Below, in pieces: positions 16,147 to 51,567 of a DNA stretch of 64,000 bases. Position 1 is the stretch's first letter. Every line of letters begins with the position of its first letter. The stretch comes from Squalus acanthias (taxonomy: Eukaryota): the NCBI GenBank assembly GCA_030390025.1, contig CM059431.1, forward strand, positions 138,510,001 through 138,574,000. The letters are read 5' to 3'. The position numbers were made by a program, and so were the translations under genes. The notes beneath the pieces were generated by a model. The model had not been told where the DNA came from. It worked only from the letters and a program-made list of their open reading frames with translations, and did no database searches.

Positions 16147-16425
16147 CTGAGGATCAGAGAGAAATAACAGGAATCAGAACCTAAGTGTGGGCCCAGAACA
16201 GAGAGAAACAAAGCTGGAAGTGCAAGTTAGAAAAGTAGTCAGCAAAACTAGTAGGGAGCAGAAACAAAGGCCTACAGTAAAGAGGGTCAAACTGCAGAAA
16301 AATATTAAACAGGCAAAGTTGAAGGCACTTTATCTAAATGCACGTACCATTCGCAACAAGGTGGATGAATTAATGGCACTAATAGAAGTAAATGGGTATG
16401 ATTTAATTCCCATTACAGAGACATT

Positions 16426-18504: not shown

Positions 18505-19700
<1,196 letters not shown>

Positions 19701-21005: not shown

Positions 21006-22403
21006 AACATGGATTTACGAAAGGGAAATCCTGTTTGACAAACCTATTAGAGTTCTTTGAGGATGTAACTAGTGGAGTAGACAAAGCGGAACCGGTAGAT
21101 GTGGTGTATCTGGATTTTCAGAAGGCCTTCGATAAGGTCCCACACAAGAGGTTGGTGAACAAAATTCAGGCACATGGAATTGGGGGTAATATACTAGCAT
21201 GGATTGAGAATTGGTTAACAGACAGAAAACAAAGAGTAGGGATAAACGGGTCTTTTTCAGGATGGCAGGCTGTGACTAGTGGGGTACCGCAAGGATCGGT
21301 GCTTGGGCCCCAGCTATTCACAATCTATATCAATGATTTGGATGAGGGTACTAAATGTAACATTTCCAAATTTGCTGCTGATACAAAGCTAGGTGGCAGT
21401 GTCAGTTGCGAAGAGGATATGAAGAGGCTTCAAGGGGATTTCGACAGGCTCAGTGACTGGGAGGGAACATGGCAGATGGAATATAATGTGGATAAATGTG
21501 AAGTTATCCACTTTGGTAGAAAAAACAGAAAGGCAGAGTATTTCCTCAATGGTGAAAGATTGGGGAATGCAGAAGCTCAAAGGGACCTGGGTGTCCTCGT
21601 ACAAGAGTCACTGAAAGGGAATGTGCAGGTGCAGCAAGCCATTAGGAAGGCAAATGGTATGCTGACCTTCATTACAAGAGGATTTGAGTACAGGAGTAAA
21701 GAAGTCTTTCTCCAATTATATAGGGCCTTGGTGAGACCACACCTGGAGTACTGTGTACAATTTTGGTCTCCTTACCTAAGGAAGGATATACTTGCCATAG
21801 AGGGAGTGCAACGAAGGTTCAAGAGATTGATTTCTGGGATGGCGGGACTGTCGTATGAGAAGAGATTGAGTAAACTAGGCCTGTATTCTCCTGAATTCAG
21901 AAGAATAAGAGGGGATCTCATTGCAGCATTCAAAATTATTACAGGGCTTGATAGGATGGATGCTGGGAGAATGTTTCCCTTGGCTGGGGAGTCTAGAACC
22001 AGGGGCCACAGCCTCAAGATAAAGGGAAGGCCATTCAAGACTGAGATAAGAAGGAATTTCTTCACAAGGAGGGTGGTGAATCTTTGGAATTCTGTACCCC
22101 AGAGGACTGTGGAGGCTCAGTCATTGGGTATATTCAAAACAGAAGTCGATAGATTTCTGACTAGTAAGGGCATCAAGGGATATGGTGATAGTGCCGGTGA
22201 ATGGAGTTGAGGCAGAAGATCAGCCATGATCTCATTGAATGGTGGAGCAGGCTCGAAAGGCCGAATGGCCTACTCCTGCTCCTATTTCTTATGTTCTTAA
22301 ATCCCCAGCGTCTATTAATAACACTGTTACTGATACTAATAATAATGTTCAGTGTTAGACATCCTGTTATTATAAACACAATCTCACACAGTCTGGTACT
22401 TAC

Positions 22404-22490
22404 CACAGTTTCTGTATTTCACAGTCCGGGTTCCTCAGAGCCGCAGACAGTAGTTTCACTCCTGAATCTCCCAGGTTATTCTGATTCAGT
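22404..22490 (-). CDS. NLR first LRR exon, 87 nt (LNQNNLGDSGVKLLSAALRNPDCEIQKL)
   Basis: GTTTAG acceptor, GTAAGT donor, phase 2-2, homologous to the second half of the 171-nt exons. Confidence 0.9.
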
Positions 22491-32235: not shown

Positions 32236-34419
32236 TGTGCTATGTGGGAAGTCAGGGACACTTTCAGTGTCCAGGGCGAACACATGTGCAGGAAGTGTCT
32301 CCAGCTGCAGCTACTCGAAATCCGCGTTTCGGAGCTGGAGCTGCGGCTGGAGTCACTGTGGAGCATCCGCGAAGCTGAGATCTTCGTGGATAGCACGTTT
32401 AACGAGGTGGTCACACCGCAGATAAAGAGTGCACAGGCAGACAGGGAATGGGTGACCGCCAGACAGAGTAAAAGAACTAGGAAGGTAGTGCAGGAGACCC
32501 CTAGGTCCATCCCCCTCTCCAACAGATTTTCCGTTTTGGATACTGCTGGGGGAGATGGTTTCTCAGGGGAATGCAGCAAGAGTCAAGTCCGTGGCACTAC
32601 GAGTGGCTCAGCTGCACAGGAGGGGAGGAAAAGAGTGGGAGAACAAGAGTGATAGGGGATTCTATCATAAGGGGAACAGATAGACATTTCTGTGGCCGCA
32701 GACGTGACTCCAGGATGGTATGTTGCCAGGGTCAAAGATGTCACTGAACGGCTGCAGGGCATTCTGAAGGGTGAGGGCGAACAGTTAGAGGTCGTGGTTC
32801 ACAATTGTACCAAAGACATAGGTAGAAAGAGGGATGAGGTCCTGCAACAAGAATTTAGGGAGCTAGGTAGCAGATTAAAAAGCAGGACCTCAAAGGTTAT
32901 AACCTCTGGATTACTCCCGGTGCCACGTGCTAGTGAGTATAGGAATAGGAGGATAGAGCAGATGAATGCGTGGCTAAAGAGTTGGTGCATGAGGGAGGGC
33001 TTTAGTTTCCTGGATCACTGGGTCTGCTTTTGGGGAAGGTGGGACCTGTACAAGTCGGACCCTGTACAAGTCGGACGGGTTGCACCTGAACCGGAACGGG
33101 ACCAACATCCTTGCGGGGAGGTTTGCTAGTGCTGCAGGCGGCGGGTTTAAACTAACTTGGCAGTGGGATGGGATACGGAGTGGAGCTATAGTAGGGGGTG
33201 ATAGAGGAAAAAAAACAACTCAGCCTGGAAGGTAGAGCAAATATGTAATGGCATAAGGGAGTATGGCAAGGCTGGATGGCATTTATTTTAATGCAAGGAG
33301 TCTTGTGAGTAAGGCAGATGAATTGTAGGTGTTGAACACATGGGAGTATGATATTGTTGCTATCACAGAGACATGGTTGTGGGAGGGGCAGGACTGGCAG
33401 CTCAATATTCCGGGGTATATAATCTTCAGGCGAGACAGAGGGGGGTGTAAAAGAGGAGGGGGTGTCGCAATATTAATCAAGGTGTCAATTACTGCTGTAA
33501 GGAGGGATGATGTCTTAGCAGGTTCCTCTAATGAGGCCATATGGGTAGAACTTAAAAACAAAATGCGGGAAGCACTTTGCTGGAAGTGTACTATAGGCCC
33601 CCAAACAGTCAGGGGGAGATAGAGGAACAGATATGTAGGCAAATCTCAGAAGTGTAGAAATAATAGGGTAATAATAGTATTAACTGGGATAATCAGAGTG
33701 TGAAAGGCTTAGAGGGGGCGGAATTCTTAAAGTGCATCCAGGAGAGCTTTTTGAGCCAGCATGTAGAAAGTCCTACAAGAGAGGGGGTGGTACTGGACCT
33801 AATTCTAGGGAATGTAGCCGGGCAAGTGGTAGAAGTGTCAGTAGGAGAGCATTTTGGTGACAGTGACCATAATTCGGTGAGATTTAAGGTAGTCATGGAA
33901 AAGGATAAAGATGGACCGGAAATAAAGGTTCTAAATTGGGGGAAGGCCGATTTTATTATGATAAGGCAGGATCTGGCCAAAGTGGACTGGGATCAGCTAC
34001 TTGTAGGAAAATCCACATCAGAGCAGTGGGAGTCATTCAGAAAGGAAAGAGAGTACAGCGCCAACATGTTCCCGTAAAGGTCAAGGGTGGGACCAACAAG
34101 TCCAGGTCCCCCCTCAGCCTTCTCTGCTCTAAGGAAAACAACCCCAGCCTGTCCAGTCTCTTCTCATAGCTGAAGCGCTCCAGCCCAGGTAACATCCTGG
34201 TGAATGCACTCTCTCTAATGCAATCACATCTCTCCTATAGTGTGGTGACCAGAACTGCACACAGTATTCCATCTGTGGCCGAACTAGCGTTTTGTACAGC
34301 TCCATCATAACCTCCCTGCTCTTATATTCTATGATGCGGAGATGCCGGTGTTGGACTGGGGTGGACAAAATTGAGAGGTCGCACAACACCAGGTTATAGT
34401 CCAACAGTTTTATTTGAAA

Positions 34420-34457
34420 TCACAAGCTTTCGGAACTATCGCTCCTTCCTCAGGTGA
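34420..34457 (-). ncRNA. Minimal type I hammerhead ribozyme (pLTR copy 1)
   Basis: UCAC CUGAGGA A GGAGC GAUA GUUCC GAAA GCUU GUGA: stem I UCAC/GUGA, core CUGANGA/GAAA, palindromic stem III. Confidence 0.85.
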
Positions 34458-34791
34458 AGTAAATTGGATACAGAATCGTCAGAGCATATATAGATGGAAA
34501 AAAAAAGCATGTGTACTTTACAATTGCAGACCAATAAATTAAATCATCCTGACTATCTGCCGAGGTGTGATAAAGTTAATTAAGTCAGCCAGGAAGGTAC
34601 CACATCAAAAGACATAGCAAGATACAACTGAGACAATGAGGTGAAGTCGCAGGGGTTCTAACGTGTCAAAAGCTGCCGTCTGTATGTAAAACGAAAAGCT
34701 TTAAAAAAAAATTACTTTTTTACTGGGAAAATTTTTACTTTTTTACTGGGAATCACATCTGTGAACAAGCTAACGACGACTCGAGTCCGGA

Positions 34792-37470
34792 TCACGTCAT
34801 GTATCGTGACATAAACCCAAGATCCCGATTGAGACCGTCTTCATGAGTGCAGAACTTGGCTATCAGTTTCTGCTCGATGATTTTGCGTTGTCGTGTGTTT
34901 CTAAGGTTGCCTTGGAGAACGCTTACCCGCAGATCCGAGGCTGAATGTCCTTGACTGCTGAAGTGTTCCCCGACTGGGAGGTAACAATCCTGCCTGGCGA
35001 TTGTTGCGCGGTGCTCGTTCATACGTTGTCTCAGTGTCTGCATGGTCTCGCCGATGTACCATGCCGCGGTGCATTCTTTCCTGCAACGTATGAGGTAGAC
35101 AACGTTGGCCGAGTCACATGAGTATGTACCATGTACCTGGTGGGTAGTGTCCTCACGTGTGATGGTGGTATCTGTGTTGATGATCTGGCATGTCTTGCAG
35201 AGTTTGCCATGGCAGGGTTGTGTGGTGTCGTGGTCGCTGTTATCCTGAAAGCTGGGTAATTTGCTGCGAACGATGGTACTTCTGAGGTTAGGCGGCTGTT
35301 TGAAGGCAAGTAGTGGAGGCGTGGGGATGGCCTTAGCGAGGTGTTTGTCGTCATCGATGACATGTTGAAGGCTGCGAAGAACATGTCGTAGTTTCTCCGC
35401 TCCGGGGAAGTACTGGACGACGTAGGGTACCCTGTTGGTTGTGTCCCGTGTTTGCCTTCTGAGGAGGTCTATGCGATTTTTCGCTGTGGCCCGTCGGAAC
35501 TGTCGATCGATGAGTCGAGCGTCATATCCCGTTCTTACGAGGGCGTTTTTCAGCGTCCGTAGGTGTCCATCGCGTTCCTCCTCGTCTGAGCAGATCCTGT
35601 GTATTCGCAGGGCTTGTCCATAGGGGATGGCTTCTTTAACATGGTTAGGGTGGAAGCTGGAGAAGTGGAGCATCGTGAGGTTGTCCGTGGGCTTGCGGTA
35701 GAGTGAAGTGCTGAGGTGTCCGTCTTTGATGGAGATTCGTGTGTCCAGGAATGAGACCGATTCTGAGGAGTAGTCCATGGTGAGTTTGATGGTGGGATGG
35801 AACTTGTTTATGTTATCGTGTAGTCTTTTCAGTGATCCTTCGCCATGGGTCCAAAGGAAGAAAATGTCGTCGATGTATCTGGTGTACAGCGTTGGCTGGA
35901 GGTCCTGTGCAGCGAAGAAGTCTTGCTCGAACTTGTGCATGAAGATGTTGGCGTATTGGGGTGCGAATTTGGTCCCCATGGCTGTTCCGTGTGTTTGGGT
36001 AAAAAAATGGTTGTCGAAGGTGAAGACATTGTGGTCAAGGATGAAGCGGATGAGTTGTAGGATGGCGTCTGGAGATTGGCTGTTGTTGATGTTGAGTACT
36101 GAGGCTGTTGCAGCGATGCCGTCATCGTGGGGGATACTGGTGTAGAGTGCCGATACGTCCATCGTGGCAAGGAGTGTTCCTGGTTCAACTGGTCCGTGGG
36201 TGCTGAGTTTCTGTAAGAAGTCTGTAGTGTCGCGACAGAAGCTGGGGGTTCCCTGTACGATGGGTTTCAGAATGCCCTCGACGTATCCAGAGAGGTTCTC
36301 ACACAGGGTTCCATTGCCTGATACGATAGGACGTCCGGGTGTGTTGGCTTTGTGTATCTTTGGGAGGCAGTAGAAGTCTCCCACGCGGGGAGTACGTGGG
36401 ATGAGAGCGCGTAGGATGTTTTGAAGGTCTGGATCGAAGGTCTTGATCAGTCTATTGAGTTGGCGGGTGTGTTCTTTGGTCGGATCTGCGGGTAGCTGTC
36501 TGTAGTGTTCCTGGTTGTCCAGTTGTCGGTATGCTTCTTTACAATAGTCCGTTCTGTTCTGTATGACGATGGCTCCTCCTTTGTCCGCTGGTTTGATGAC
36601 AATGTTGCGGTTGGTCTTGAGAGCGTGGATGGCGTTGCGTTGTGCTCGGGTGACATTCTGGACTGTCTTGTGAGTGCGGCTGATGAATCTGGCGTTGATG
36701 CATTTCCTGACAGCTTGAGCATACATGTCAAGCTTGGGGCAGCGACCCTCCGGAGGGGTCCAGTTTGACTCTTTTTTCTTCGGTTGCTGCACTGCGAGTC
36801 CCTCTGTCTGCTGTTCTGGATCATTGATTGTCTCATTGGGTTTGTTGCTGACATCTTGGGATTTGTGGAAGTATTCCCGGAGCCTCATTCTCCTGATGAA
36901 TTCCTCCGTGTCTGCCGCGAGACCGATGGGGTCCATTTTGGTGGTTGGGCAGAACTTGAGCCCTAGGGCGAGAACTTCGATTTCGTCTGGTTGAAGGGTA
37001 TGGTCGGACAAGTTGACGATGGACTTCCCTGTGGTTGCAGCCGTGGTACCGGGGGAGGCTTGGTTGCTGCTGGTGGTGATGCCGAGTTTCTCAAGCTTCC
37101 TGTTCTTGATGCGCATGTAGGCAGCGTAGTTCCGTTGCCTCGTCTGTTTGGTGGTGTCTCGTAACTGGTCTGCTGTGTCCTGAGCACAGGCTGAGAGCAT
37201 GGACTCTATCTTGGTTTCGAGGTTGTGGCGTTTGCTGTAGAGCTGGTGTACGAGATGGTTGAGGAGTGTGCGAGAGGTACGACGGCAGAGTCTCTCAGCG
37301 TAGTCTGTGTTGTATGTCGACTTGAGTGGGTTCGTGATCTGTAGTCCTTTCGGGATCTTGTCTGCTTTCTTGCATCTCTGTAGATACTTGATGTCGGTGT
37401 CGATATGCGCGATCTTCTTGGCGATTCTCTCCACTTTGAGCCGGCAGTTTGTGGTGTCGATAGTGGTCAT
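34792..37470 (-). CDS. PLE polyprotein RT + GIY-YIG endonuclease, intact, 892 aa from first ATG
   Basis: IKPADKG, DVSALYTSIP, GTAMG, RYIDD, Cys linker PCHGKLCKTC, VVYLIRC..WYIGET, GLN. The track start at 37542 is a TTG. Confidence 0.96.
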   Translation of the reverse strand: MTTIDTTNCRLKVERIAKKIAHIDTDIKYLQRCKKADKIPKGLQITNPLKSTYNTDYAERLCRRTSRTLLNHLVHQLYSKRHNLETKIESMLSACAQDTADQLRDTTKQTRQRNYAAYMRIKNRKLEKLGITTSSNQASPGTTAATTGKSIVNLSDHTLQPDEIEVLALGLKFCPTTKMDPIGLAADTEEFIRRMRLREYFHKSQDVSNKPNETINDPEQQTEGLAVQQPKKKESNWTPPEGRCPKLDMYAQAVRKCINARFISRTHKTVQNVTRAQRNAIHALKTNRNIVIKPADKGGAIVIQNRTDYCKEAYRQLDNQEHYRQLPADPTKEHTRQLNRLIKTFDPDLQNILRALIPRTPRVGDFYCLPKIHKANTPGRPIVSGNGTLCENLSGYVEGILKPIVQGTPSFCRDTTDFLQKLSTHGPVEPGTLLATMDVSALYTSIPHDDGIAATASVLNINNSQSPDAILQLIRFILDHNVFTFDNHFFTQTHGTAMGTKFAPQYANIFMHKFEQDFFAAQDLQPTLYTRYIDDIFFLWTHGEGSLKRLHDNINKFHPTIKLTMDYSSESVSFLDTRISIKDGHLSTSLYRKPTDNLTMLHFSSFHPNHVKEAIPYGQALRIHRICSDEEERDGHLRTLKNALVRTGYDARLIDRQFRRATAKNRIDLLRRQTRDTTNRVPYVVQYFPGAEKLRHVLRSLQHVIDDDKHLAKAIPTPPLLAFKQPPNLRSTIVRSKLPSFQDNSDHDTTQPCHGKLCKTCQIINTDTTITREDTTHQVHGTYSCDSANVVYLIRCRKECTAAWYIGETMQTLRQRMNEHRATIARQDCYLPVGEHFSSQGHSASDLRVSVLQGNLRNTRQRKIIEQKLIAKFCTHEDGLNRDLGFMSRYMT

Positions 37471-37557
37471 GATGCGGAGATGCCGGTGTTGGACTGGGGT
37501 GGACAAAATTGAGAGGTCGCACAACACCAGGTTATAGTCCAACAGTTTTATTTGAAA

Positions 37558-37595
37558 TCACAAGCTTTCGGAGCTATCGCTCCTTCCTCAGGTGA
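37558..37595 (-). ncRNA. Minimal hammerhead ribozyme (pLTR copy 2)
   Basis: Same fold; stem II is fully Watson-Crick here (GGAGC/GCUCC). Confidence 0.87.
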
Positions 37596-37929
37596 AGTAA
37601 ATTGGATACAGAATCGTCAGAGCATATATAGATGGAAAAAAAAGCATGTGTACTTTACAATTGCAGACCAATAAATTAAATCATCCTGACTATCTGCCGA
37701 GGTGTGATAAAGTTAATTAAGTCAGCCAGGAAGGTACCACATCAAAAGACATAGCAAGATACAACTGAGACAATGAGGTGAAGTCGCAGGGGTTCTAACG
37801 TGTCAAAAGCTGCCGTCTGTATGTAAAACGAAAAGCTTTAAAAAAAAATTTACTTTTTTACTGGGAAAATTTTTACTTTTTTACTGGGAATCACATCTGT
37901 GAACAAGCTAACGACGACTCGAGTCCGGA

Positions 37930-40016
37930 TCACGTCATGTATCGTGACATAAACCCAAGATCCCGATTGAGACCGTCTTCATGAGTGCAGAACTTGGCTA
38001 TCAGTTTCTGCTCGATGATTTTGCGTTGTCGTGTGTTTCTAAGGTTGCCTTGGAGAACGCTTACCCGCAGATCCGAGGCTGAATGTCCTTGACTGCTGAA
38101 GTGTTCCCCGACTGGGAGGGAACAATCCTGCCTGGCGATTGTTGCGCGGTGCTCGTTCATACGTTGTCTCAGTGTCTGCATGGTCTCGCCGATGTACCAT
38201 GCCGCGGTGCATTCTTTCCTGCAACGTATGAGGTAGACAACGTTGGCCGAGTCACATGAGTATGTACCATGTACCTGGTGGGTAGTGTCCTCACGTGTGA
38301 TGGTGGTATCTGTGTTGATGATCTGGCATGTCTTGCAGAGTTTGCCATGGCAGGGTTGTGTGGTGTCGTGGTCGCTGTTATCCTGAAAGCTGGGTAATTT
38401 GCTGCGAACGATGGTACTTCTGAGGTTAGGCGGCTGTTTGAAGGCAAGTAGTGGAGGCGTGGGGATGGCCTTAGCGAGGTGTTTGTCGTCATCGATGACA
38501 TGTTGAAGGCTGCGAAGAACATGTCGTAGTTTCTCCGCTCCGGGGAAGTACTGGACGACGTAGGGTACCCTGTTGGTTGTGTCCCGTGTTTGCCTTCTGA
38601 GGAGGTCTATGCGATTTTTCGCTGTGGCCCGTCGGAACTGTCGATCGATGAGTCGAGCGTCATATCCCGTTCTTACGAGGGCGTTTTTCAGCGTCCGTAG
38701 GTGTCCATCGCGTTCCTCCTCGTCTGAGCAGATCCTGTGTATTCGCAGGGCTTGTCCATAGGGGATGGCTTCTTTAACATGGTTAGGGTGGAAGCTGGAG
38801 AAGTGGAGCATCGTGAGGTTGTCCGTGGGCTTGCGGTAGAGTGAAGTGCTGAGGTGTCCGTCTTTGATGGAGATTCGTGTGTCCAGGAATGAGACCGATT
38901 CTGAGGAGTAGTCCATGGTGAGTTTGATGGTGGGATGGAACTTGTTTATGTTATCGTGTAGTCTTTTCAGTGATCCTTCGCCATGGGTCCAAAGGAAGAA
39001 AATGTCGTCGATGTATCTGGTGTACAGCGTTGGCTGGAGGTCCTGTGCAGCGAAGAAGTCTTGCTCGAACTTGTGCATGAAGATGTTGGCGTATTGGGGT
39101 GCGAATTTGGTCCCCATGGCTGTTCCGTGTGTTTGGGTAAAAAAATGGTTGTCGAAGGTGAAGACATTGTGGTCAAGGATGAAGCGGATGAGTTGTAGGA
39201 TGGCGTCTGGAGATTGGCTGTTGTTGATGTTGAGTACTGAGGCTGTTGCAGCGATGCCGTCATCGTGGGGGATACTGGTGTAGAGTGCCGATACGTCCAT
39301 CGTGGCAAGGAGTGTTCCTGGTTCAACTGGTCCGTGGGTGCTGAGTTTCTGTAAGAAGTCTGTAGTGTCGCGACAGAAGCTGGGGGTTCCCTGTACGATG
39401 GGTTTCAGAATGCCCTCGACGTATCCAGAGAGGTTCTCACACAGGGTTCCATTGCCTGATACGATAGGACGTCCGGGTGTGTTGGCTTTGTGTATCTTTG
39501 GGAGGCAGTAGAAGTCTCCCACGCGGGGAGTACGTGGGATGAGAGCGCGTAGGATGTTTTGAAGGTCTGGATCGAAGGTCTTGATCAGTCTATTGAGTTG
39601 GCGGGTGTGTTCTTTGGTCGGATCTGCGGGTAGCTGTCTGTAGTGTTCCTGGTTGTCCAGTTGTCGGTATGCTTCTTTACAATAGTCCGTTCTGTTCTGT
39701 ATGACGATGGCTCCTCCTTTGTCCGCTGGTTTGATGACAATGTTGCGGTTGGTCTTGAGAGCGTGGATGGCGTTGCGTTGTGCTCGGGTGACATTCTGGA
39801 CTGTCTTGTGAGTGCGGCTGATGAATCTGGCGTTGATGCATTTCCTGACAGCTTGAGCATACATGTCAAGCTTGGGGCAGCGACCCTCCGGAGGGGTCCA
39901 GTTTGACTCTTTTTTCTTCGGTTGCTGCACTGCGAGTCCCTCTGTCTGCTGTTCTGGATCATTGATTGTCTCATTGGGTTTGTTGCTGACATCTTGGGAT
40001 TTGTGGAAGTATTCCC
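37930..40016 (-). pseudogene. 5'-truncated PLE ORF copy ending at the inversion junction
   Basis: Matches the other copies from ..EYFHKSQD.. to the stop; N-terminus missing. Confidence 0.93.
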
Positions 40017-40298
40017 AGTAAATTTTCCCAGTAAAAAAGTAAATTTTTTTTTTAAAGCTTTTCGTTTTACATACATACGGCAGCTTTTGACACGTTAGAA
40101 CCCCTGCGACTTCACCTCATTGTCTCAGTTGTATCTTGCTATGTCTTTTGATGTGGTACCTTCCTGGCTGACTTAATTAACTTTATCACACCTCGGCAGA
40201 TAGTCAGGATGATTTAATTTATTGGTCTGCAATTGTAAAGTACACATGCTTTTTTTTTCCATCTATATATGCTCTGACGATTCTGTATCCAATTTACT

Positions 40299-40336
40299 TC
40301 ACCTGAGGAAGGAGCGATAGTTCCGAAAGCTTGTGA
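40299..40336 (+). ncRNA. Minimal hammerhead ribozyme (pLTR copy 3)
   Basis: TCACCTGAGGAAGGAGCGATAGTTCCGAAAGCTTGTGA. Confidence 0.85.
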
Positions 40337-40423
40337 TTTCAAATAAAACTGTTGGACTATAACCTGGTGTTGTGCGACCTCTCAATTTTGTCCACCCCAG
40401 TCCAACACCGGCATCTCCGCATC

Positions 40424-43102
40424 ATGACCACTATCGACACCACAAACTGCCGGCTCAAAGTGGAGAGAATCGCCAAGAAGATCGCGCATATCGACACCGA
40501 CATCAAGTATCTACAGAGATGCAAGAAAGCAGACAAGATCCCGAAAGGACTACAGATCACGAACCCACTCAAGTCGACATACAACACAGACTACGCTGAG
40601 AGACTCTGCCGTCGTACCTCTCGCACACTCCTCAACCATCTTGTACACCAGCTCTACAGCAAACGCCACAACCTCGAAACCAAGATAGAGTCCATGCTCT
40701 CAGCCTGTGCTCAGGACACAGCAGACCAGTTACGAGACACCACCAAACAGACGAGGCAACGGAACTACGCTGCCTACATGCGCATCAAGAACAGGAAGCT
40801 TGAGAAACTCGGCATCACCACCAGCAGCAACCAAGCCTCCCCCGGTACCACGGCTGCAACCACAGGGAAGTCCATCGTCAACTTGTCCGACCATACCCTT
40901 CAACCAGACGAAATCGAAGTTCTCGCCCTAGGGCTCAAGTTCTGCCCAACCACCAAAATGGACCCCATCGGTCTCGCGGCAGACACGGAGGAATTCATCA
41001 GGAGAATGAGGCTCCGGGAATACTTCCACAAATCCCAAGATGTCAGCAACAAACCCAATGAGACAATCAATGATCCAGAACAGCAGACAGAGGGACTCGC
41101 AGTGCAGCAACCGAAGAAAAAAGAGTCAAACTGGACCCCTCCGGAGGGTCGCTGCCCCAAGCTTGACATGTATGCTCAAGCTGTCAGGAAATGCATCAAC
41201 GCCAGATTCATCAGCCGCACTCACAAGACAGTCCAGAATGTCACCCGAGCACAACGCAACGCCATCCACGCTCTCAAGACCAACCGCAACATTGTCATCA
41301 AACCAGCGGACAAAGGAGGAGCCATCGTCATACAGAACAGAACGGACTATTGTAAAGAAGCATACCGACAACTGGACAACCAGGAACACTACAGACAGCT
41401 ACCCGCAGATCCGACCAAAGAACACACCCGCCAACTCAATAGACTGATCAAGACCTTCGATCCAGACCTTCAAAACATCCTACGCGCTCTCATCCCACGT
41501 ACTCCCCGCGTGGGAGACTTCTACTGCCTCCCAAAGATACACAAAGCCAACACACCCGGACGTCCTATCGTATCAGGCAATGGAACCCTGTGTGAGAACC
41601 TCTCTGGATACGTCGAGGGCATTCTGAAACCCATCGTACAGGGAACCCCCAGCTTCTGTCGCGACACTACAGACTTCTTACAGAAACTCAGCACCCACGG
41701 ACCAGTTGAACCAGGAACACTCCTTGCCACGATGGACGTATCGGCACTCTACACCAGTATCCCCCACGATGACGGCATCGCTGCAACAGCCTCAGTACTC
41801 AACATCAACAACAGCCAATCTCCAGACGCCATCCTACAACTCATCCGCTTCATCCTTGACCACAATGTCTTCACCTTCGACAACCATTTTTTTACCCAAA
41901 CACACGGAACAGCCATGGGGACCAAATTCGCACCCCAATACGCCAACATCTTCATGCACAAGTTCGAGCAAGACTTCTTCGCTGCACAGGACCTCCAGCC
42001 AACGCTGTACACCAGATACATCGACGACATTTTCTTCCTTTGGACCCATGGCGAAGGATCACTGAAAAGACTACACGATAACATAAACAAGTTCCATCCC
42101 ACCATCAAACTCACCATGGACTACTCCTCAGAATCGGTCTCATTCCTGGACACACGAATCTCCATCAAAGACGGACACCTCAGCACTTCACTCTACCGCA
42201 AGCCCACGGACAACCTCACGATGCTCCACTTCTCCAGCTTCCACCCTAACCATGTTAAAGAAGCCATCCCCTATGGACAAGCCCTGCGAATACACAGGAT
42301 CTGCTCAGACGAGGAGGAACGCGATGGACACCTACGGACGCTGAAAAACGCCCTCGTAAGAACGGGATATGACGCTCGACTCATCGATCGACAGTTCCGA
42401 CGGGCCACAGCGAAAAATCGCATAGACCTCCTCAGAAGGCAAACACGGGACACAACCAACAGGGTACCCTACGTCGTCCAGTACTTCCCCGGAGCGGAGA
42501 AACTACGACATGTTCTTCGCAGCCTTCAACATGTCATCGATGACGACAAACACCTCGCTAAGGCCATCCCCACGCCTCCACTACTTGCCTTCAAACAGCC
42601 GCCTAACCTCAGAAGTACCATCGTTCGCAGCAAATTACCCAGCTTTCAGGATAACAGCGACCACGACACCACACAACCCTGCCATGGCAAACTCTGCAAG
42701 ACATGCCAGATCATCAACACAGATACCACCATCACACGTGAGGACACTACCCACCAGGTACATGGTACATACTCATGTGACTCGGCCAACGTTGTCTACC
42801 TCATACGTTGCAGGAAAGAATGCACCGCGGCATGGTACATCGGCGAGACCATGCAGACACTGAGACAACGTATGAACGAGCACCGCGCAACAATCGCCAG
42901 GCAGGATTGTTCCCTCCCAGTCGGGGAACACTTCAGCAGTCAAGGACATTCAGCCTCGGATCTGCGGGTAAGCGTTCTCCAAGGCAACCTTAGAAACACA
43001 CGACAACGCAAAATCATCGAGCAGAAACTGATAGCCAAGTTCTGCACTCATGAAGACGGTCTCAATCGGGATCTTGGGTTTATGTCACGATACATGACGT
43101 GA
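40424..43102 (+). CDS. PLE polyprotein RT + GIY-YIG, intact, 892 aa
   Basis: Same motifs as 34792-37470; ATG at 40424. Confidence 0.96.
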   Translation: MTTIDTTNCRLKVERIAKKIAHIDTDIKYLQRCKKADKIPKGLQITNPLKSTYNTDYAERLCRRTSRTLLNHLVHQLYSKRHNLETKIESMLSACAQDTADQLRDTTKQTRQRNYAAYMRIKNRKLEKLGITTSSNQASPGTTAATTGKSIVNLSDHTLQPDEIEVLALGLKFCPTTKMDPIGLAADTEEFIRRMRLREYFHKSQDVSNKPNETINDPEQQTEGLAVQQPKKKESNWTPPEGRCPKLDMYAQAVRKCINARFISRTHKTVQNVTRAQRNAIHALKTNRNIVIKPADKGGAIVIQNRTDYCKEAYRQLDNQEHYRQLPADPTKEHTRQLNRLIKTFDPDLQNILRALIPRTPRVGDFYCLPKIHKANTPGRPIVSGNGTLCENLSGYVEGILKPIVQGTPSFCRDTTDFLQKLSTHGPVEPGTLLATMDVSALYTSIPHDDGIAATASVLNINNSQSPDAILQLIRFILDHNVFTFDNHFFTQTHGTAMGTKFAPQYANIFMHKFEQDFFAAQDLQPTLYTRYIDDIFFLWTHGEGSLKRLHDNINKFHPTIKLTMDYSSESVSFLDTRISIKDGHLSTSLYRKPTDNLTMLHFSSFHPNHVKEAIPYGQALRIHRICSDEEERDGHLRTLKNALVRTGYDARLIDRQFRRATAKNRIDLLRRQTRDTTNRVPYVVQYFPGAEKLRHVLRSLQHVIDDDKHLAKAIPTPPLLAFKQPPNLRSTIVRSKLPSFQDNSDHDTTQPCHGKLCKTCQIINTDTTITREDTTHQVHGTYSCDSANVVYLIRCRKECTAAWYIGETMQTLRQRMNEHRATIARQDCSLPVGEHFSSQGHSASDLRVSVLQGNLRNTRQRKIIEQKLIAKFCTHEDGLNRDLGFMSRYMT

Positions 43103-43436
43103 TCCGGACTCGAGTCGTCGTTAGCTTGTTCACAGATGTGATTCCCAGTAAAAAAGTAAAAATTTTCCCAGTAAAAAAGTAAATTTTTTTTTAAAGCTTT
43201 TCGTTTTACATACATACGGCAGCTTTTGACACGTTAGAACCCCTGCGACTTCACCTCATTGTCTCAGTTGTATCTTGCTATGTCTTTTGATGTGGTACCT
43301 TCCTGGCTGACTTAATTAACTTTATCACACCTCGGCAGATAGTCAGGATGATTTAATTTATTGGTCTGCAATTGTAAAGTACACATGCTTTTTTTTCCAT
43401 CTATATATGCTCTGACGATTCTGTATCCAATTTACT

Positions 43437-43474
43437 TCACCTGAGGAAGGAGCGATAGTTCCGAAAGCTTGTGA
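43437..43474 (+). ncRNA. Minimal hammerhead ribozyme (pLTR copy 4)
   Basis: Identical to 40299-40336. Confidence 0.85.
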
Positions 43475-43561
43475 TTTCAAATAAAACTGTTGGACTATAA
43501 CCTGGTGTTGTGCGACCTCTCAATTTTGTCCACCCCAGTCCAACACCGGCATCTCCGCATC

Positions 43562-46240
43562 ATGACCACTATCGACACCACAAACTGCCGGCTCAAAGTG
43601 GAGAGAATCGCCAAGAAGATCGCGCATATCGACACCGACATCAAGTATCTACAGAGATGCAAGAAAGCAGACAAGATCCCGAAAGGACTACAGATCACGA
43701 ACCCACTCAAGTCGACATACAACACAGACTACGCTGAGAGACTCTGCCGTCGTACCTCTCGCACACTCCTCAACCATCTCGTACACCAGCTCTACAGCAA
43801 ACGCCACAACCTCGAAACCAAGATAGAGTCCATGCTCTCAGCCTGTGCTCAGGACACAGCAGACCAGTTACGAGACACCACCAAACAGACGAGGCAACGG
43901 AACTACGCTGCCTACATGCGCATCAAGAACAGGAAGCTTGAGAAACTCGGCATCACCACCAGCAGCAACCAAGCCTCCCCCGGTACCACGGCTGCAACCA
44001 CAGGGAAGTCCATCGTCAACTTGTCCGACCATACCCTTCAACCAGACGAAATCGAAGTTCTCGCCCTAGGGCTCAAGTTCTGCCCAACCACCAAAATGGA
44101 CCCCATCGGTCTCGCGGCAGACACGGAGGAATTCATCAGGAGAATGAGGCTCCGGGAATACTTCCACAAATCCCAAGATGTCAGCAACAAACCCAATGAG
44201 ACAATCAATGATCCAGAACAGCAGACAGAGGGACTCGCAGTGCAGCAACCGAAGAAAAAAGAGTCAAACTGGACCCCTCCGGAGGGTCGCTGCCCCAAGC
44301 TTGACATGTATGCTCAAGCTGTCAGGAAATGCATCAACGCCAGATTCATCAGCCGCACTCACAAGACAGTCCAGAATGTCACCCGAGCACAACGCAACGC
44401 CATCCACGCTCTCAAGACCAACCGCAACATTGTCATCAAACCAGCGGACAAAGGAGGAGCCATCGTCATACAGAACAGAACGGACTATTGTAAAGAAGCA
44501 TACCGACAACTGGACAACCAGGAACACTACAGACAGCTACCCGCAGATCCGACCAAAGAACACACCCGCCAACTCAATAGACTGATCAAGACCTTCGATC
44601 CAGACCTTCAAAACATCCTACGCGCTCTCATCCCACGTACTCCCCGCGTGGGAGACTTCTACTGCCTCCCAAAGATACACAAAGCCAACACACCCGGACG
44701 TCCTATCGTATCAGGCAATGGAACCCTGTGTGAGAACCTCTCTGGATACGTCGAGGGCATTCTGAAACCCATCGTACAGGGAACCCCCAGCTTCTGTCGC
44801 GACACTACAGACTTCTTACAGAAACTCAGCACCCACGGACCAGTTGAACCAGGAACACTCCTTGCCACGATGGACGTATCGGCACTCTACACCAGTATCC
44901 CCCACGATGACGGCATCGCTGCAACAGCCTCAGTACTCAACATCAACAACAGCCAATCTCCAGACGCCATCCTACAACTCATCCGCTTCATCCTTGACCA
45001 CAATGTCTTCACCTTCGACAACCATTTTTTTACCCAAACACACGGAACAGCCATGGGGACCAAATTCGCACCCCAATACGCCAACATCTTCATGCACAAG
45101 TTCGAGCAAGACTTCTTCGCTGCACAGGACCTCCAGCCAACGCTGTACACCAGATACATCGACGACATTTTCTTCCTTTGGACCCATGGCGAAGGATCAC
45201 TGAAAAGACTACACGATAACATAAACAAGTTCCATCCCACCATCAAACTCACCATGGACTACTCCTCAGAATCGGTCTCATTCCTGGACACACGAATCTC
45301 CATCAAAGACGGACACCTCAGCACTTCACTCTACCGCAAGCCCACGGACAACCTCACGATGCTCCACTTCTCCAGCTTCCACCCTAACCATGTTAAAGAA
45401 GCCATCCCCTATGGACAAGCCCTGCGAATACACAGGATCTGCTCAGACGAGGAGGAACGCGATGGACACCTACGGACGCTGAAAAACGCCCTCGTAAGAA
45501 CGGGATATGACGCTCGACTCATCGATCGACAGTTCCGACGGGCCACAGCGAAAAATCGCATAGACCTCCTCAGAAGGCAAACACGGGACACAACCAACAG
45601 GGTACCCTACGTCGTCCAGTACTTCCCCGGAGCGGAGAAACTACGACATGTTCTTCGCAGCCTTCAACATGTCATCGATGACGACAAACACCTCGCTAAG
45701 GCCATCCCCACGCCTCCACTACTTGCCTTCAAACAGCCGCCTAACCTCAGAAGTACCATCGTTCGCAGCAAATTACCCAGCTTTCAGGATAACAGCGACC
45801 ACGACACCACACAACCCTGCCATGGCAAACTCTGCAAGACATGCCAGATCATCAACACAGATACCACCATCACACGTGAGGACACTACTCACCAGGTACA
45901 TGGTACATACTCATGTGACTCGGCCAACGTTGTCTACCTCATACGTTGCAGGAAAGAATGCACCGCGGCATGGTACATCGGCGAGACCATGCAGACACTG
46001 AGACAACGTATGAACGAGCACCGCGCAACAATCGCCAGGCAGGATTGTTCCCTCCCAGTCGGGGAACACTTCAGCAGTCAAGGACATTCAGCCTCGGATC
46101 TGCGGGTAAGCGTTCTCCAAGGCAACCTTAGAAACACACGACAACGCAAAATCATCGAGCAGAAACTGATAGCCAAGTTCTGCACTCATGAAGACGGTCT
46201 CAATCGGGATCTTGGGTTTATGTCACGATACATGACGTGA
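43562..46240 (+). CDS. PLE polyprotein RT + GIY-YIG, intact, 892 aa
   Basis: Protein appears identical to the 40424 copy; offset 3138 bp. Confidence 0.96.
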   Translation: MTTIDTTNCRLKVERIAKKIAHIDTDIKYLQRCKKADKIPKGLQITNPLKSTYNTDYAERLCRRTSRTLLNHLVHQLYSKRHNLETKIESMLSACAQDTADQLRDTTKQTRQRNYAAYMRIKNRKLEKLGITTSSNQASPGTTAATTGKSIVNLSDHTLQPDEIEVLALGLKFCPTTKMDPIGLAADTEEFIRRMRLREYFHKSQDVSNKPNETINDPEQQTEGLAVQQPKKKESNWTPPEGRCPKLDMYAQAVRKCINARFISRTHKTVQNVTRAQRNAIHALKTNRNIVIKPADKGGAIVIQNRTDYCKEAYRQLDNQEHYRQLPADPTKEHTRQLNRLIKTFDPDLQNILRALIPRTPRVGDFYCLPKIHKANTPGRPIVSGNGTLCENLSGYVEGILKPIVQGTPSFCRDTTDFLQKLSTHGPVEPGTLLATMDVSALYTSIPHDDGIAATASVLNINNSQSPDAILQLIRFILDHNVFTFDNHFFTQTHGTAMGTKFAPQYANIFMHKFEQDFFAAQDLQPTLYTRYIDDIFFLWTHGEGSLKRLHDNINKFHPTIKLTMDYSSESVSFLDTRISIKDGHLSTSLYRKPTDNLTMLHFSSFHPNHVKEAIPYGQALRIHRICSDEEERDGHLRTLKNALVRTGYDARLIDRQFRRATAKNRIDLLRRQTRDTTNRVPYVVQYFPGAEKLRHVLRSLQHVIDDDKHLAKAIPTPPLLAFKQPPNLRSTIVRSKLPSFQDNSDHDTTQPCHGKLCKTCQIINTDTTITREDTTHQVHGTYSCDSANVVYLIRCRKECTAAWYIGETMQTLRQRMNEHRATIARQDCSLPVGEHFSSQGHSASDLRVSVLQGNLRNTRQRKIIEQKLIAKFCTHEDGLNRDLGFMSRYMT

Positions 46241-46576
46241 TCCGGACTCGAGTCGTCGTTAGCTTGTTCACAGATGTGATTCCCAGTAAAAAAGTAAAAA
46301 TTTTCCCAGTAAAAAAGTAAATTTTTTTTTTAAAGCTTTTCGTTTTACATACATACGGCAGCTTTTGACACGTTAGAACCCCTGCGACTTCACCTCATTG
46401 TCTCAGTTGTATCTTGCTATGTCTTTTGATGTGGTACCTTCCTGGCTGACTTAATTAACTTTATCACACCTCGGCAGATAGTCAGGATGATTTAATTTAT
46501 TGGTCTGCAATTGTAAAGTACACATGCTTTTTTTTTCCATCTATATATGCTCTGACGATTCTGTATCCAATTTACT

Positions 46577-46614
46577 TCACCTGAGGAAGGAGCGATAGTT
46601 CCGAAAGCTTGTGA
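46577..46614 (+). ncRNA. Minimal hammerhead ribozyme (pLTR copy 5)
   Basis: Identical to 40299-40336; lies ~45 nt from the right end of the insertion. Confidence 0.85.
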
Positions 46615-49600
46615 TTTCAAATAAAACTGTTGGACTATAACCTGGTGTTGTGCGACCTCTTATATTCTATGCCTAAGCTAATGAAGGCAAGTATCCCATA
46701 TGCCTTTTTAACTACCTTATCTACCTGTCCTGCTGCCTTCAGGGATCTATGTACATGCACACCAAGGTCCCACTGATCCTCTGTCCTTCCTAGGGTCCTA
46801 CCATTCATTGTGCATTCCCTTGCCTTGTTAGTCCTCCCAAAATGCAACACCTCACACTTTTCAGGGTTAAATTCCATTTGTCACTGTTCTGCCCATCTGA
46901 CCAACCCGTCTATCTAGTCCTGTAGCCTGAGGATTCCCTCCTCACTATTTACCACTCCACCAATTTTCATGTCATCTGCGAACTTACTGATCATACCTCC
47001 TACATTCATATCTAAATCATTAATGTGCACGACAAACAGCAAAGGACCCAGCACCGATCCCTGCGGTACACCACTGGACACAGGCTTCCAGTCACAAAAA
47101 CAACCTTCGACCATCACCCTCTGCCTCCTGCCACTAAGCCAATTTTGGATCCAATGTGCCAAATTGCCCTGGATCCCATGGGCTCTTACCTTCTTAACTA
47201 GTCTCCCATGCGGGACTTGTCAAAAAGCCTTACTGAAGTCCATGTAGACTACATCAACTGCACTACCCTCATCCACACACCTAGTCACCTCCTCGAAAAA
47301 TTCAATCAAATTGTTTAGACATGATCTCCCCCTGACAAAGCTAATGCTGACTGTCCTTGATTAATCCTTGCTTCTCCAAGTGGAGACTAATTCTGTCCCT
47401 CAGAATTTTTTCCAATAATTTCCCTACCACTGATGTTAGGCACACTGGCCTGCAATTCCCTGATTTATCCCTACTACCCTTCTTGAATAATGGTACTAAG
47501 TTAGCTGTCCTCCAGTTTTCAGGCACCTCCCCTGTGGCCAGAGAGGAGCTGAAAATTTGTGTCAGAGCCCCTGAAATCTCCTCCATTGCCTCACACAGCA
47601 GCCTGGGATACATCTCGTCTGGGCCTGGGGATTTATCCACTTTTAAGCCCGCTAAAACCACTAATACCTCCTCCCTCTCGATGCGGATTTGTTCAAGTAT
47701 ATCACAATCCCCCTGCCTGATTTCTATGCTGACATCGTCCTTCTCCACAGTGAACACAGATGCAAAATATTCATTTAAAACGGCTCTACACACAGATTGC
47801 CACTTTGGTCCCTAATGGGCCCTACTCTTTTCCAAGTTATCCTCTTGCCCTTAATATACTTATAAAACACCTTGGGATTTTCCTTTATTTTGCCCGCCAG
47901 TATTTTTTCATGCCCCCTCTTTGCTCTCCTAATTTCTTTTTTAAGTAACCCCCTGCACTTTCTATACTCTTCTAGGGCTTCCACTGTTTTTAGTCCTTTG
48001 TACCTGCCAAAAGCCTCCATTTTTTTCCTAATCCATTCTTGTATATCCCTTGACATCCAGGGTTCCCTGGACTTGTTGGTCCCACCTTTGACCTTTACGG
48101 GAACATGTTGTCACTGTACTCTCTCTGTTTCCTTTCTGAATGACTCCCACTGCTCTGATGTGGATTTTCCTACAAGTAGCTGATCCCAGTCCACTTTAGC
48201 CAGATCCTGCCTTATTTAGAACCTTTATTTCCGGTCCATCTTTGTCCTTTTCCATGACTACTTTAAATCTCACCAAATTATGGTCACTGTCAGCAAAATG
48301 CTCTCCTACTGACATTTCTACCACTTGCCTAGAATTAGGTCCAGTACCACCCCCTCTCTGGTAGGACAGTCTACATGCTGGCTCAAAAAGCTCTCCTGGA
48401 TGCACTTTAAGAATTCCGCCCCTTCTCAGCCTTTCACACTCTGACTATCCCAGTTAATATTGGGGAAGTTGAAATCCCCTACTATTATTACCCTATTATT
48501 TCTACACTTCTGAGATTTGCCTACATATCTGTTCCTCTATCTCCCCCTGACTGTTTGGGGGCCTATAGTACACTCCCAGCAAAGTGCTTGCCCCCTTTTT
48601 GTTTTCAAGTTCTACCCATATGGCCTCATTCGAGGAACCTGCTAAGACATCATCCCTCCTTACAGCAGTAATTGACTCCTTGATTAATATTGCGACACCC
48701 CCTCCTCTTTTACACCCCCCTCTGTCTCGCCTGAAGATTATATACCCCGGAAGATTGAGCTGCCAGTCATGCCCCTCCCTCAACCATGTCTCTGTGATAG
48801 CAACAATATCATACTCCCATGTGTTCAACACCTTCAATTCATCTGCCTTACTCGTAAGACTCCTTGCATTAAAATAAATGCCATCCAGCCTTGCCATACT
48901 CCCTTGCGCCGTTACATATTTGCTGTGCCTTCCAGACTGACTTGGTTTTTTCCTCTATATTTGGCTTTGCATCACCCCCTACTATAGCTCCACTCCGTAT
49001 CCCATCCCCCTGCCAAGTTAGTTTAAACCGCCCTCAACAGCACTAGCAAACCTCCCCACAAGGATGTTGGTCCCGTTCCGGTTCAGGTGCAACCTGTCTG
49101 ACATGTACAGGTCCCACCTTCCCCAGAAACAGATCCAGTGATCCAGGAAACTAAAGCCCTCCCTCCTGCACCAACTCTTTAGCCACGCATTCATCTGCTC
49201 TTTCCTCCTATTCCTATACTCACTAGCACTTGGCACCGGGAGTAATCCAGAGATTACAACCTTTGAGGTCCCGCTTTTTAATCTGCTACCTAACTCCCTA
49301 AATTCTTGTTGCAGGACCTCATCCCTCTTTCTACCTATGTCGTTGGTACTAATGTGAACCACGACCTCTGACTTTTCACCCTCCCCTTTCAGAATGCCCT
49401 GCAGCCGTTCAGTGACATCCTTGACCCTGGCACCAGGGAGGCAACATACCATCCTGGAGTCACGTCTGCGGCTGCAGAAACACCTGTCTGCACCCCTCAC
49501 TATTGAGACTCCTACCACTATTGCCCTTCCACTCTTACTCCTCCCCACTTCTGCAGCTCAGGATAAAGACTGTAAAATCCCTACTTGTTCACAAGGATCC

Positions 49601-49782: not shown

Positions 49783-51520
49783 CTCAACACCCGGCATTTG
49801 TGCAGTACGGGTCCCAGCCGCTGGAGTCCCTCACACTGAATGGAGCAGAAGTCCAGATCGAGGTGTTTTACTGTATCACAGAGTCCAATGACATGAGACA
49901 GGACCGCACAGTCAATCGGGGTCAATGCCATGTCACTAAATGTGAGTGAGTTCACAGATCCCACTGTGGCCCGAGCCAGTGCTTTATTCTGAGACTCAAA
50001 CAGGTAGTGCAATGTGTTCAGGAGGTTCCTTTTACCAGTTTCACTCTCTGTGTCTCCAATCTGTCCCTCAACCTTCTCCTTCACCCAGTCAATCACTCGG
50101 CAGGTGGTTTGATGAAGAAATGGACCCAGAAACTCCTCCAGGGGCCGAGCTGACTGTGGAGAGGAGAGACCAGCAACAAAACGGAGAAATATCTCAAATC
50201 GCCCATCTTCCTCGCTGTGGGCTTCTCTGAGGAGTTTCAGGATGTCCCCGGGATCTGGAGTCAGGAATTGTGCGAGTGCGGCTACAAACTCTTGGATGGT
50301 GAGGTGCGGGAATGTGTACACCACGCTCTGGGCAGAATCATCCCTCTCCAAAAGTTCCATCATGAACCCAGACAGGAACTGGGAAGGTTGCAGATTGTAC
50401 TTGATCAAATCTCCATTTCTAAACACAATCTTCTTCTCGGAGACTCCTGTGAAGGCCATCTCACCAAGCTTCAGTAACACATCACGGGGGCTTTCAATCT
50501 CTCGGCCATGGTTTTTCAGAATGTTGTAGATATAGTAGGAATATAGTTGGGTGATGGTCTTGGGAACTCGCTGCTGATTCCTGTCTCTTTGTGTAAAGAA
50601 GGGACCCAGTGACAGACCGAGGATGAAGCAGTAGGAAGGGTTGAAGCTCATAGTGTACAGGATCTCGTTCTCCTCCACGTGTTTGAAAACAGCTGCTGCC
50701 ACCGTCTGATCTTCAAAAAACTTGTTGAAATATTCCTTCCGTTCTTCACCAACAAATCCCAGGATTTCAGCCCAGACACTGATCTCCGCCTTTTCCAATA
50801 AATGTAATGCAGTGGGGCGGCTGGTCACTAGCACTGAACATCCTGGGAGCAGCTTGTGCTGTATTAAACTGTACACAATGTCAGACACTTCACACCAGTC
50901 TTCAGGATCAGTGCACATGTGCTGAGGTTCTGTATTTCTCTGATTGTCAGCAAAATCGATACTGTCCTTGAATTCATCCAAACCATCGAATATAAACAGC
51001 AATCCCTCTGGGTTCTTCCAGAGCTCTCCCAGAATATTCCCAAAGTAAGGATACAGATCCAGTATCAGATTCCTCAGGTTTATTCTACAGTTAATAGCGT
51101 TCAAATCCCGGAATTTAAAGCTGAAAACAAATTGAAAATGTGGGAATATTTTCCCAGTGGCCCAGTCATGAACAATCTTTTGTACCATTGTTGTTTTTCC
51201 AATCCCCGGGACTCCGCTCACTGCACCTGAACTCCCACAATTGGATTTTCTCCGGGAAAAACTGCTCTGGAACAATTGATCAGTTCGGATTTTTTCCAGT
51301 TCTCTCCGGAGATGTTTCTCTCTCCACTCTTCATGGTCTCGGCCTCTTGCCAGCAGTTCATGTTCTACAAGTGTCCGATCTCGAACAGTAGAAATGACCG
51401 TTAGCTCAGCGTATCGATCAACCAGCTGGAAAATCTTAACCTTCTCCTTTATTAGGATAGTGTTCACTCTCAGTGTTTCAGTTTGTACCCGCAGTGTTTC
51501 CTTGTGTTTCTGTTGAACAT
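49783..51520 (-). CDS. NLR NACHT exon (1738 nt)
   Basis: (D)VQQKHKETLR..., Walker A GVPGIGKT, Walker B LLFIFDGLDE, VLVTSRP, winged-helix FPHLTIQEF. TTGAAG acceptor, GTAACT donor. Open throughout. Confidence 0.96.
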
Positions 51521-51567
51521 CTTCAATTAGAACAGACAGAAAGTGGTTTCAATGTTAGTTGCTAACC

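Follow-up and report, generated by a model that had tools for sequence, protein, structure and literature searches.

A 64,000-nucleotide stretch of the Squalus acanthias genome (assembly GCA_030390025.1, contig CM059431.1, positions 138,510,001 to 138,574,000 of the forward strand; hereafter the window) carries a 12.3-kb array which, judged from its sequence, is almost certainly a single young and intact insertion of a Penelope-like element (PLE), about four units long and with a hammerhead ribozyme motif in every pseudo-long terminal repeat (pLTR). The repeat unit is 3138 nt and encodes an open reading frame (ORF) of 892 aa; the array consists of two inverted arms placed head-to-head, both element 3' ends pointing outward.

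Five minimal hammerhead motifs in the pLTRs

A motif search of the window returned five hammerhead matches, compared with none in 100 shuffles, which bears out an earlier sequence-only reading that had announced five minimal type I hammerheads. Their cores start at 34453 and 37591 on the minus strand and at 40303, 43441 and 46581 on the plus strand.

34420..34457, minus strand: minimal type I hammerhead from the motif search, outer copy of the minus arm, predicted cut 34424/34423
37558..37595, minus strand: minimal type I hammerhead, inner copy of the minus arm, stem II G-C variant at 37573, predicted cut 37562/37561
40299..40336, plus strand: minimal type I hammerhead, copy 1 of the plus arm, predicted cut 40332/40333
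43437..43474, plus strand: minimal type I hammerhead, copy 2 of the plus arm, predicted cut 43470/43471
46577..46614, plus strand: minimal type I hammerhead, copy 3 of the plus arm, predicted cut 46610/46611

The motif parses, as the earlier reading correctly had it, as UCAC-CUGAGGA-A-GGAGC-GAUA-GUUCC-GAAA-GCUU-GUGA, that is, in order, a 4-bp stem I, CUGAGGA, an extra A, a 5-bp stem II, GAAA, the palindrome AGCU, U, the cut and the closing strand of stem I. The catalytic core (CUGANGA, GAAA and UH) is present in all five copies, as are the extra nucleotide that separates positions 9 and 10.1 and the G10.1-C11.1 pair, and the short helix I (4 bp) and palindromic helix III (AGCU) are those of the minimal type I motifs of PLEs. 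Helix II, at 5 bp, is below the 7-8 bp of the type examples; relatives have 4-8 bp, and its length was not treated as defining. An Rfam covariance-model scan gave no hammerhead match at E ≤ 1, presumably because helix III is missing, and the folding energy of the lone motif is no better than that of shuffles (z -1.4; z -2.4 for the G-C copy). The evidence for a ribozyme is therefore the catalytic core and its occurrence in relatives. Core, stems and palindrome together support the assignment to the pLTR-type hammerheads of PLEs: the five motifs are known pLTR ribozymes of one element and are predicted to be half-ribozymes that need a partner.

The inner minus-strand copy differs by a substitution at 37573 that changes a stem II G-U pair to G-C and takes the fold energy from -11.3 to -13.7 kcal/mol. 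This change, put forward earlier as preserving the fold, is real but does not serve as a sign of a conserved fold, being a single one-sided change among four copy-private substitutions, at least one of which would land in a motif with a chance of 6%; it was also rejected as covariation. Since the copies derive from a single event and were not selected as RNA individually, the substitution is uninformative on function.

Anatomy and age of the insertion

The array interrupts a long interspersed nuclear element (LINE) that we take to be of CR1 type; its reverse transcriptase (RT) frame continues across the array, with a 15-bp word on both sides.

34331..40016, minus strand: minus arm, 1.81 units, 5'-truncated inside the ORF and ending 93 nt past the cut site (long tail)
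40011..46660, plus strand: plus arm, 2.12 units, starting in a pLTR and ending 50 nt past the cut site (short tail)
40011..40016: inversion junction, a 6-nt microhomology followed by a short slip in a 23-nt pLTR repeat
34319..34333, plus strand: left copy of a 15-bp target-site duplication, its last 3 nt common to the element end
46657..46671, plus strand: right copy of the target-site duplication, its first 4 nt common to the element end
34107..34333, minus strand: 3' part of the target CR1-type LINE, whose RT reading frame resumes from 46657 upward
40350..40407, plus strand: predicted tail stem-loop, with the +50 end in its apical loop and the +93 end just past it

The motifs had been described as spaced one unit apart, which holds inside each arm (3138 nt in the minus arm, 3138 and 3140 nt in the plus arm) but not between the arms, which are inverted head-to-head. 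Within the 12.3 kb, the copies diverge by the four private substitutions, by a single site that is arm-specific and by a small number of homopolymer lengths. The arm-specific site lies in the pLTR and reads T in all three plus pLTRs and G in both minus pLTRs; in three other sequencing runs G is the only letter there. The two element ends differ by 43 nt of tail and carry microhomologies of 3 and 4 nt, each matching its own target strand at the 3' end. The +93 end coincides with the 3' junction usual in the family, as shown by contigs of run X4 that diverge at 40425 (15) and 40427 (11). The layout of endonuclease-bearing (EN+) PLEs is thus found in full: pLTRs from partial tandems, an inverted 5'-truncated copy and a tail at one end.

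We consider it probable that the endonuclease cut the two strands 15 nt apart, that each 3' end primed reverse transcription in the tail (at +93 and +50) on a separate RNA, and that the two cDNAs met at the 6-nt microhomology. Alternatively, the inversion could be a fold-back copy of the plus arm, made by self-priming or as a palindromic read or assembly artefact. Self-priming has been suggested as the origin of inverted PLE junctions (PMC3846280), a fold-back of 1 kb could start from the 6-nt microhomology, and one homopolymer length matches in mirror register, a point that also tells against separate templates. In that register, however, both pairs of pLTRs set a G against a T; in a fold-back copy the change would have had to happen twice, which makes two templates likelier. 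The minus arm also contains 43 nt of tail that are absent from the plus arm, and both ends of the array lie on the target duplication, so that a fold-back origin is highly improbable. A further reservation about priming on two RNAs is that the arm allele is a single site, which a multi-unit source locus or gene conversion would explain as well. Serial insertion of the element into its own pLTR was rejected, the units having neither internal tails nor internal target duplications.

Two CR1-type 5' halves (32607-34106 and 48066-49561), inverted with respect to each other and 87% alike, flank the array, and the target CR1 ends prematurely at 34107, at the start of one of these halves.

Coding capacity and classification

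Three ORF copies are intact and a fourth is truncated.

40424..43102, plus strand: intact 892-aa ORF with RT, CX4CxxC linker and GIY-YIG endonuclease
43562..46240, plus strand: second intact ORF copy, identical protein
34792..37470, minus strand: third intact ORF copy, one change (S830Y)
37930..40016, minus strand: 5'-truncated ORF copy

The RT domain matches RVT_1 (E 1.4e-8) and has the motifs DKG and YIDD. The C-terminal GIY-YIG domain, with CCHH residues, scores E 1.7e-4 and 22.2 bits, slightly under the Pfam cut-off of 22.6. Between the two, at residues 753-761, lies a CX4CxxC linker that is nearly invariant in an alignment of relatives. A CX2-5CxxC linker is the mark of Neptune and Nematis (PMC8557442), and Neptune is preferred because the vertebrate PLEs of a 2026 preprint are Neptune and Poseidon only (bioRxiv 10.64898/2026.07.22.740005). 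By its linker motif the element is probably an EN+ PLE of the Neptune clade. The nearest named proteins are from sharks (92% Heptranchias, 86% Scyliorhinus, 83% Mustelus). A search of solved structures by sequence gave no PLE structure and weak matches to retron RTs only.

When the N-terminal 200 residues were modeled as a homodimer, the score was 0.42 (best control 0.20) and one run of three scored 0. The mark used, which is reached by seven of 16 animal dimers and none of 30 eukaryote monomers, was passed narrowly, with at least 3% of contacts shared between runs and a pLDDT of at least 57. The modeling gives weak support to an N-terminal homodimer of the RT-endonuclease.

The shark gene model epn2 (P0013) holds a piece 94% identical to the element ORF, possibly an exonised or mis-annotated copy. 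At least half of the sampled words of 40025-43160 occur in sequencing runs of four organisms (13 rows), which points to near-identical elements there; close kinship, a slow clock or transfer may lie behind this. The exact tail pattern had no match in metagenomes, and 39 stretches of viral contigs contained no relative.

Conservation of the fold among related elements

Relatives were taken from the best 80 of 491 confirmed stretches, as 78 loci encoding proteins at 28-43% identity. A descriptor that demands pairing found 22 motifs in 20 of the 78 loci on the coding strand, none antisense in the same 78 loci, and none in 20 shuffled sets. Since this descriptor demands pairing, the test was repeated without that requirement: among core pairs 10-40 nt apart, stem II together with the palindrome occurred in 23/64 sense versus 0/18 antisense pairs. 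One motif counted by the looser parse escaped the stricter descriptor, and among the 23 one (L070) appears spurious. The U at H17 recurs in 11 of the 22 related motifs, and the G10.1-C11.1 pair is G-C in 13 of 15 aligned rows. Nine of 11 pairs change on both sides, including all four of helix I, in 15 rows that were chosen for pairing, which makes this count circular and an illustration only.

Four related contigs (L001, L039, L066 and L069) have terminal repeats of 55-127 nt and thus represent circular units or collapsed tandems; the 3131 nt of L001 make up one unit, with a single ORF and a single hammerhead.

Transcript start and end signals

40264..40300, plus strand: predicted promoter made up of a TATA-like box at 40264 and, for the start, either of two initiator-like matches (A+1 40291 or 40296); present in each pLTR
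40342..40347, plus strand: AATAAA, a putative signal, 10 nt after the cut; also at 43480 and 46620 and, on the minus strand, at 37552 and 34414

The TATA-like box stands 39 nt before the hammerhead core, with the initiator-like matches at the 5' edge of the ribozyme, so that the ribozyme probably opens the transcript, at its predicted 5' end. A box 33-48 nt before the core was found in eight of 32 related loci compared with 11 of 288 background windows (permutation P 0.004, all windows), the pattern and the window having been picked after the first hits were seen and four of 36 candidates dropped as duplicates or for want of upstream sequence. A transcript starting from the ribozyme edge would hold, in one unit, exactly the two halves that a dimer requires. 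The first ATG, at 40424, lies 91 nt after the cut, with no ATG upstream, and the geometry supports the earlier proposal that a cut after CUU would yield a 3138-nt RNA beginning 91 nt before the ATG. The AATAAA reported within about 10 nt of the hammerhead is likewise there; as a conserved signal it was rejected, being present after the cut in 2/22 relatives, about the rate expected by chance.

The same geometry has suggested that cleavage serves the mRNA, removing the cap and leader and either switching translation off or allowing cap-independent translation of the ORF 91 nt downstream. The ribozyme's place at the predicted 5' end with no upstream ATG is consistent with this, and type I hammerheads in 5' untranslated regions drive cap-independent translation in some RNA viruses (PMC13725137). 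In the Anolis PLE, however, the cleavage site is 26 nt into the ORF (PMC11167929), which shows that this geometry does not hold generally. We regard such a role as improbable; it is compatible with, and does not exclude, the template mechanism that follows.

Which RNA was copied

Five times the arms cross the scissile bond without scar or duplication, and the units are colinear, with no duplication of the tail. The copied RNA was therefore uncut or re-joined. That the cut linear monomer itself was copied does not survive this observation, as the array runs straight through the cut site and ends 50 and 93 nt beyond it; such a monomer alone was not the template.

The explanation we find best, and hold tentatively at a little below an even chance, starts from a transcript initiated in the pLTR and ends with a circular template. 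The pLTR promoter would start transcription a few bases before hammerhead 1 and continue through the ORF to hammerhead 2; the two hammerheads would pair via the palindromic AGCU to form a slow, probably protein-assisted double hammerhead; this would trim both transcript ends, and the 3138-nt monomer would be ligated to a circle. Reverse transcription would then begin in the tail and make roughly two rounds of the circle. The tandem arms left by this trimming, ligation and rolling reverse transcription, 1.8 and 2.1 units long, would be seamless and have one allele along each. RNA circles have been proposed for PLEs (PMC4209133), and circles with ligation by RtcB have been shown for retrozymes (PMC7229834). 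The protein of the Anolis PLE, the element PAc, cuts and extends both strands and begins reverse transcription at two internal tail sites, to which the tail at one end of PLE insertions has been tied (PMC11167929). A bolder statement, possible but doubtful, is that the array records, in DNA, rolling-circle reverse transcription on a coding 3.1-kb RNA circle, in which an RT-endonuclease dimer primed both strands of the 15-nt stagger on two circles.

Summed contig depth in three sequencing runs rises from about 4,400, 4,100 and 100 at 40314 to 172,000, 183,000 and 1,200 in 40340-40444, a measure that is not copy number and may reflect simply a better conserved tail. This 12- to 45-fold step past the ribozyme may stem from numerous short copies ending at the cut, which would be a relic of in vivo cleavage. 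In these contig data, which by their nature do not display molecule ends, no site at which many molecules start or stop turned up; the single raw-read RNA run, with no reads on the element, bears neither way on expression.

Several observations tell against the circular template. Minimal hammerheads of PLEs, found in Neptune, Poseidon and Xena elements of fishes, are inactive as monomers and cleave with low efficiency in vitro when joined as a dimer or trimer (PMC4209133). For the present motif the predicted energy is -20.1 kcal/mol for the active dimer fold and -22.6 kcal/mol for two monomers, a deficit of 2.5 kcal/mol in stability, and in context stem I forms poorly (pairing 0.02-0.16); a slow or assisted ribozyme would agree with both values. 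In the Anolis element, mutating the ribozyme did not change insertion in vitro, where uncut RNA served as the main template, and RNA-seq gave no reads with an end at the cut site (PMC11167929). Among the relatives, 24 of 32 have no TATA-like box at the corresponding place, and the AATAAA count given above belongs here as well. The two relatives with two motifs each, L024 and L059, have direct repeats whose starts precede the core by 9 and 6 nt, and in L059 the tail end is joined directly to the ribozyme 5' edge; these starts and this joint fit the copying of an uncut linear RNA.

L059 1-140 and 5411-5520, L024 21-158: direct repeats starting at the ribozyme 5' edge

One such RNA would be a multi-unit read-through transcript of tandem source loci, the ribozyme acting rarely or at another stage. 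The model and data of PMC11167929 point this way, as do the weak dimer energetics and the four contigs that close on themselves like collapsed tandems. The plus arm, however, has pLTR sequence upstream of the predicted start, which would call for a source of at least four pLTRs and the bypass of several AATAAA signals; purely linear copying would also only shorten arrays, so that a lengthening step would be required. We consider read-through rather unlikely.

Another uncut RNA would be a single unit plus tail with redundant ends, on which the RT jumps by homology from the 5' end to the 3' repeat, as in LTR-like transfer, with no ribozyme cleavage. The predicted start at the ribozyme 5' edge would give the terminal redundancy, and the L024 and L059 repeats begin close to that edge. 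An unguided jump, however, leaves a duplicated junction as in L059, and none of the five junctions here has one; the strong selection on the catalytic core would also be left unexplained. Such strand transfer appears decidedly unlikely, and the trimmed and ligated circle remains our preferred template.

The NLR host gene

The array lies within a 27-kb intron (22491-49782) of an NLR gene, where it places a 5.6-kb near-perfect inverted repeat; its two minus-strand motifs are sense to the NLR pre-mRNA.

49783..51520, minus strand: host NLR gene, NACHT exon, upstream of the array-bearing intron
14758..22490, minus strand: six downstream NLR exons (22404-22490, 15976-16146, 15665-15835, 15350-15520, 15041-15208, the last from 14868), which we take to be leucine-rich repeat (LRR)-like

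The NACHT exon and the six downstream exons are in frame and give 867 open codons. The suggestion that the two minus copies could cut the NLR pre-mRNA, lowering expression, has in its favor that the motifs are present as a pair, in sense orientation, in the intron of an open gene, and that an intronic ribozyme of CPEB3 affects its mRNA (PMC10274809). The complement of the plus arm, however, is transcribed first; it matches over 5645 nt at 99.9% and covers both motifs, and the arm duplex is predicted at -84 to -88 kcal/mol over 46 nt, compared with about -11 to -14 for a motif and -20 to -25 for a dimer. With this arm made first and slow ribozymes, effective cutting is unlikely. Splicing is reported to have been blocked only by a fast hepatitis delta virus ribozyme, slow intronic hammerhead cuts having left it efficient (PMC2995048, on its refs 13 and 38). 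A host-regulatory ribozyme like that in CPEB3 would be fast, accessible and placed at a conserved intron position; the insertion here is recent and its motifs are covered by the complementary arm. We regard effective cutting as very improbable; the part of the suggestion that stands is the sense orientation. Likelier routes to any effect on the NLR gene are the long RNA hairpin, pLTR promoters or antisense transcription toward the NACHT exon, and the intronic AATAAA. The NLR gene is best explained as a bystander.

A CR1 piece at 51520-52133 stops a few bases before the splice acceptor of the NACHT exon, apparently leaving the acceptor usable. A 311-nt tandem repeat (15119-16178) is made up of four LRR-like exons together with the introns between them, a G-rich minisatellite (22629-23097) lies beside the first LRR-like exon, and a 13-kb satellite (12-13204; 26-nt period, 528 copies) lies directly after the end of the gene.

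Other repeats in the window

A sixth full hammerhead motif (61084-61112, minus strand) belongs to an older, different PLE family and lies at the end of a decayed element (61.0-63.0 kb); another motif of that family, with a broken palindrome, is found at about 28407-28433 (minus strand), at the end of a decayed element at 28.4-29.6 kb. A 41-nt minisatellite occupies 54370-55273 (22 copies). At 59332-59562 (minus strand) there is a weak DDE_Tnp_4 match (E 0.012, below the cut-off), presumably a Harbinger-type relic.

Comparison with known systems

The motif class is already published, and the ribozymes alone are no surprise; the value of the locus is the anatomy of the insertion as a test case. 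Tandem and inverted PLE forms with target duplications are also published (PMC8557442, PMC3846280, PMC8969392). A literature search that covered few subscription papers and little older Penelope work found no reading of these forms as both-strand priming on two templates, and no paper dealing with Neptune elements of sharks or with a TATA box that precedes the ribozyme; the available part of PMC2220036 mentions a newt promoter and no more, and that of PMC1636495 gives no data on CUU. The locus bears on the role of PLE hammerheads in vivo and on the origin of tandem and inverted insertions (PMC4209133, PMC8557442, PMC11167929). The near-unmutated element described here, with its three intact ORFs, exact ends, target duplication and arm alleles, allows a direct test of circle versus read-through and of both-strand priming, and if the rolling-circle reading is true it would serve as a direct system in which to study the PLE cycle.

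With the published PLE hammerheads (PMC4209133) the present motifs share the core, the extra nucleotide 9/10.1, the G10.1-C11.1 pair, the short helix I, the palindromic 15.2-16.2 and the presence of a single motif in each pLTR, at intervals of about 3 kb. They differ in helix II, which has 5 bp here versus 7-8 bp in the Schistosoma examples, and in the near identity of the five copies that one insertion contains; that paper emphasizes heterogeneity and, in the part available, does not name sharks. With described Neptune-clade EN+ PLEs (PMC8557442, PMC3846280) the element has in common the RT with C-terminal GIY-YIG, the CX2-5CxxC linker, partial tandems, an inverted 5'-truncated copy, a 43-nt tail difference and the target duplication. 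The inverted part is 1.8 units here, as opposed to a pLTR or a short truncated copy in those insertions, and they differ also in that three intact ORFs, five substitution sites in 12.3 kb and allele-separable arms are found here.

PAc, a Poseidon element of Anolis carolinensis (PMC11167929), likewise has a hammerhead near the ORF start, two internal RT starts in a stem-loop, an AT-rich target, use of both strands and a predicted N-terminal dimer. Poseidon is without the linker motif, whereas the shark element has CX4CxxC; PAc is cut inside the ORF and the shark element 91 nt before it; and PAc priming is described as non-homologous, while the shark element ends have 3-4 nt of target microhomology. 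Metazoan non-LTR retrozymes (PMC7229834; bioRxiv 10.64898/2026.07.22.740005) share tandem units, each with a type I hammerhead, and the circle model. Retrozymes are short (51-972 bp in the preprint) and non-coding, and their circles have been shown, whereas the shark unit, at 3138 bp and with an 892-aa ORF, falls outside the short non-coding unit that defines them, and is an autonomous element for which the circle is a proposal.

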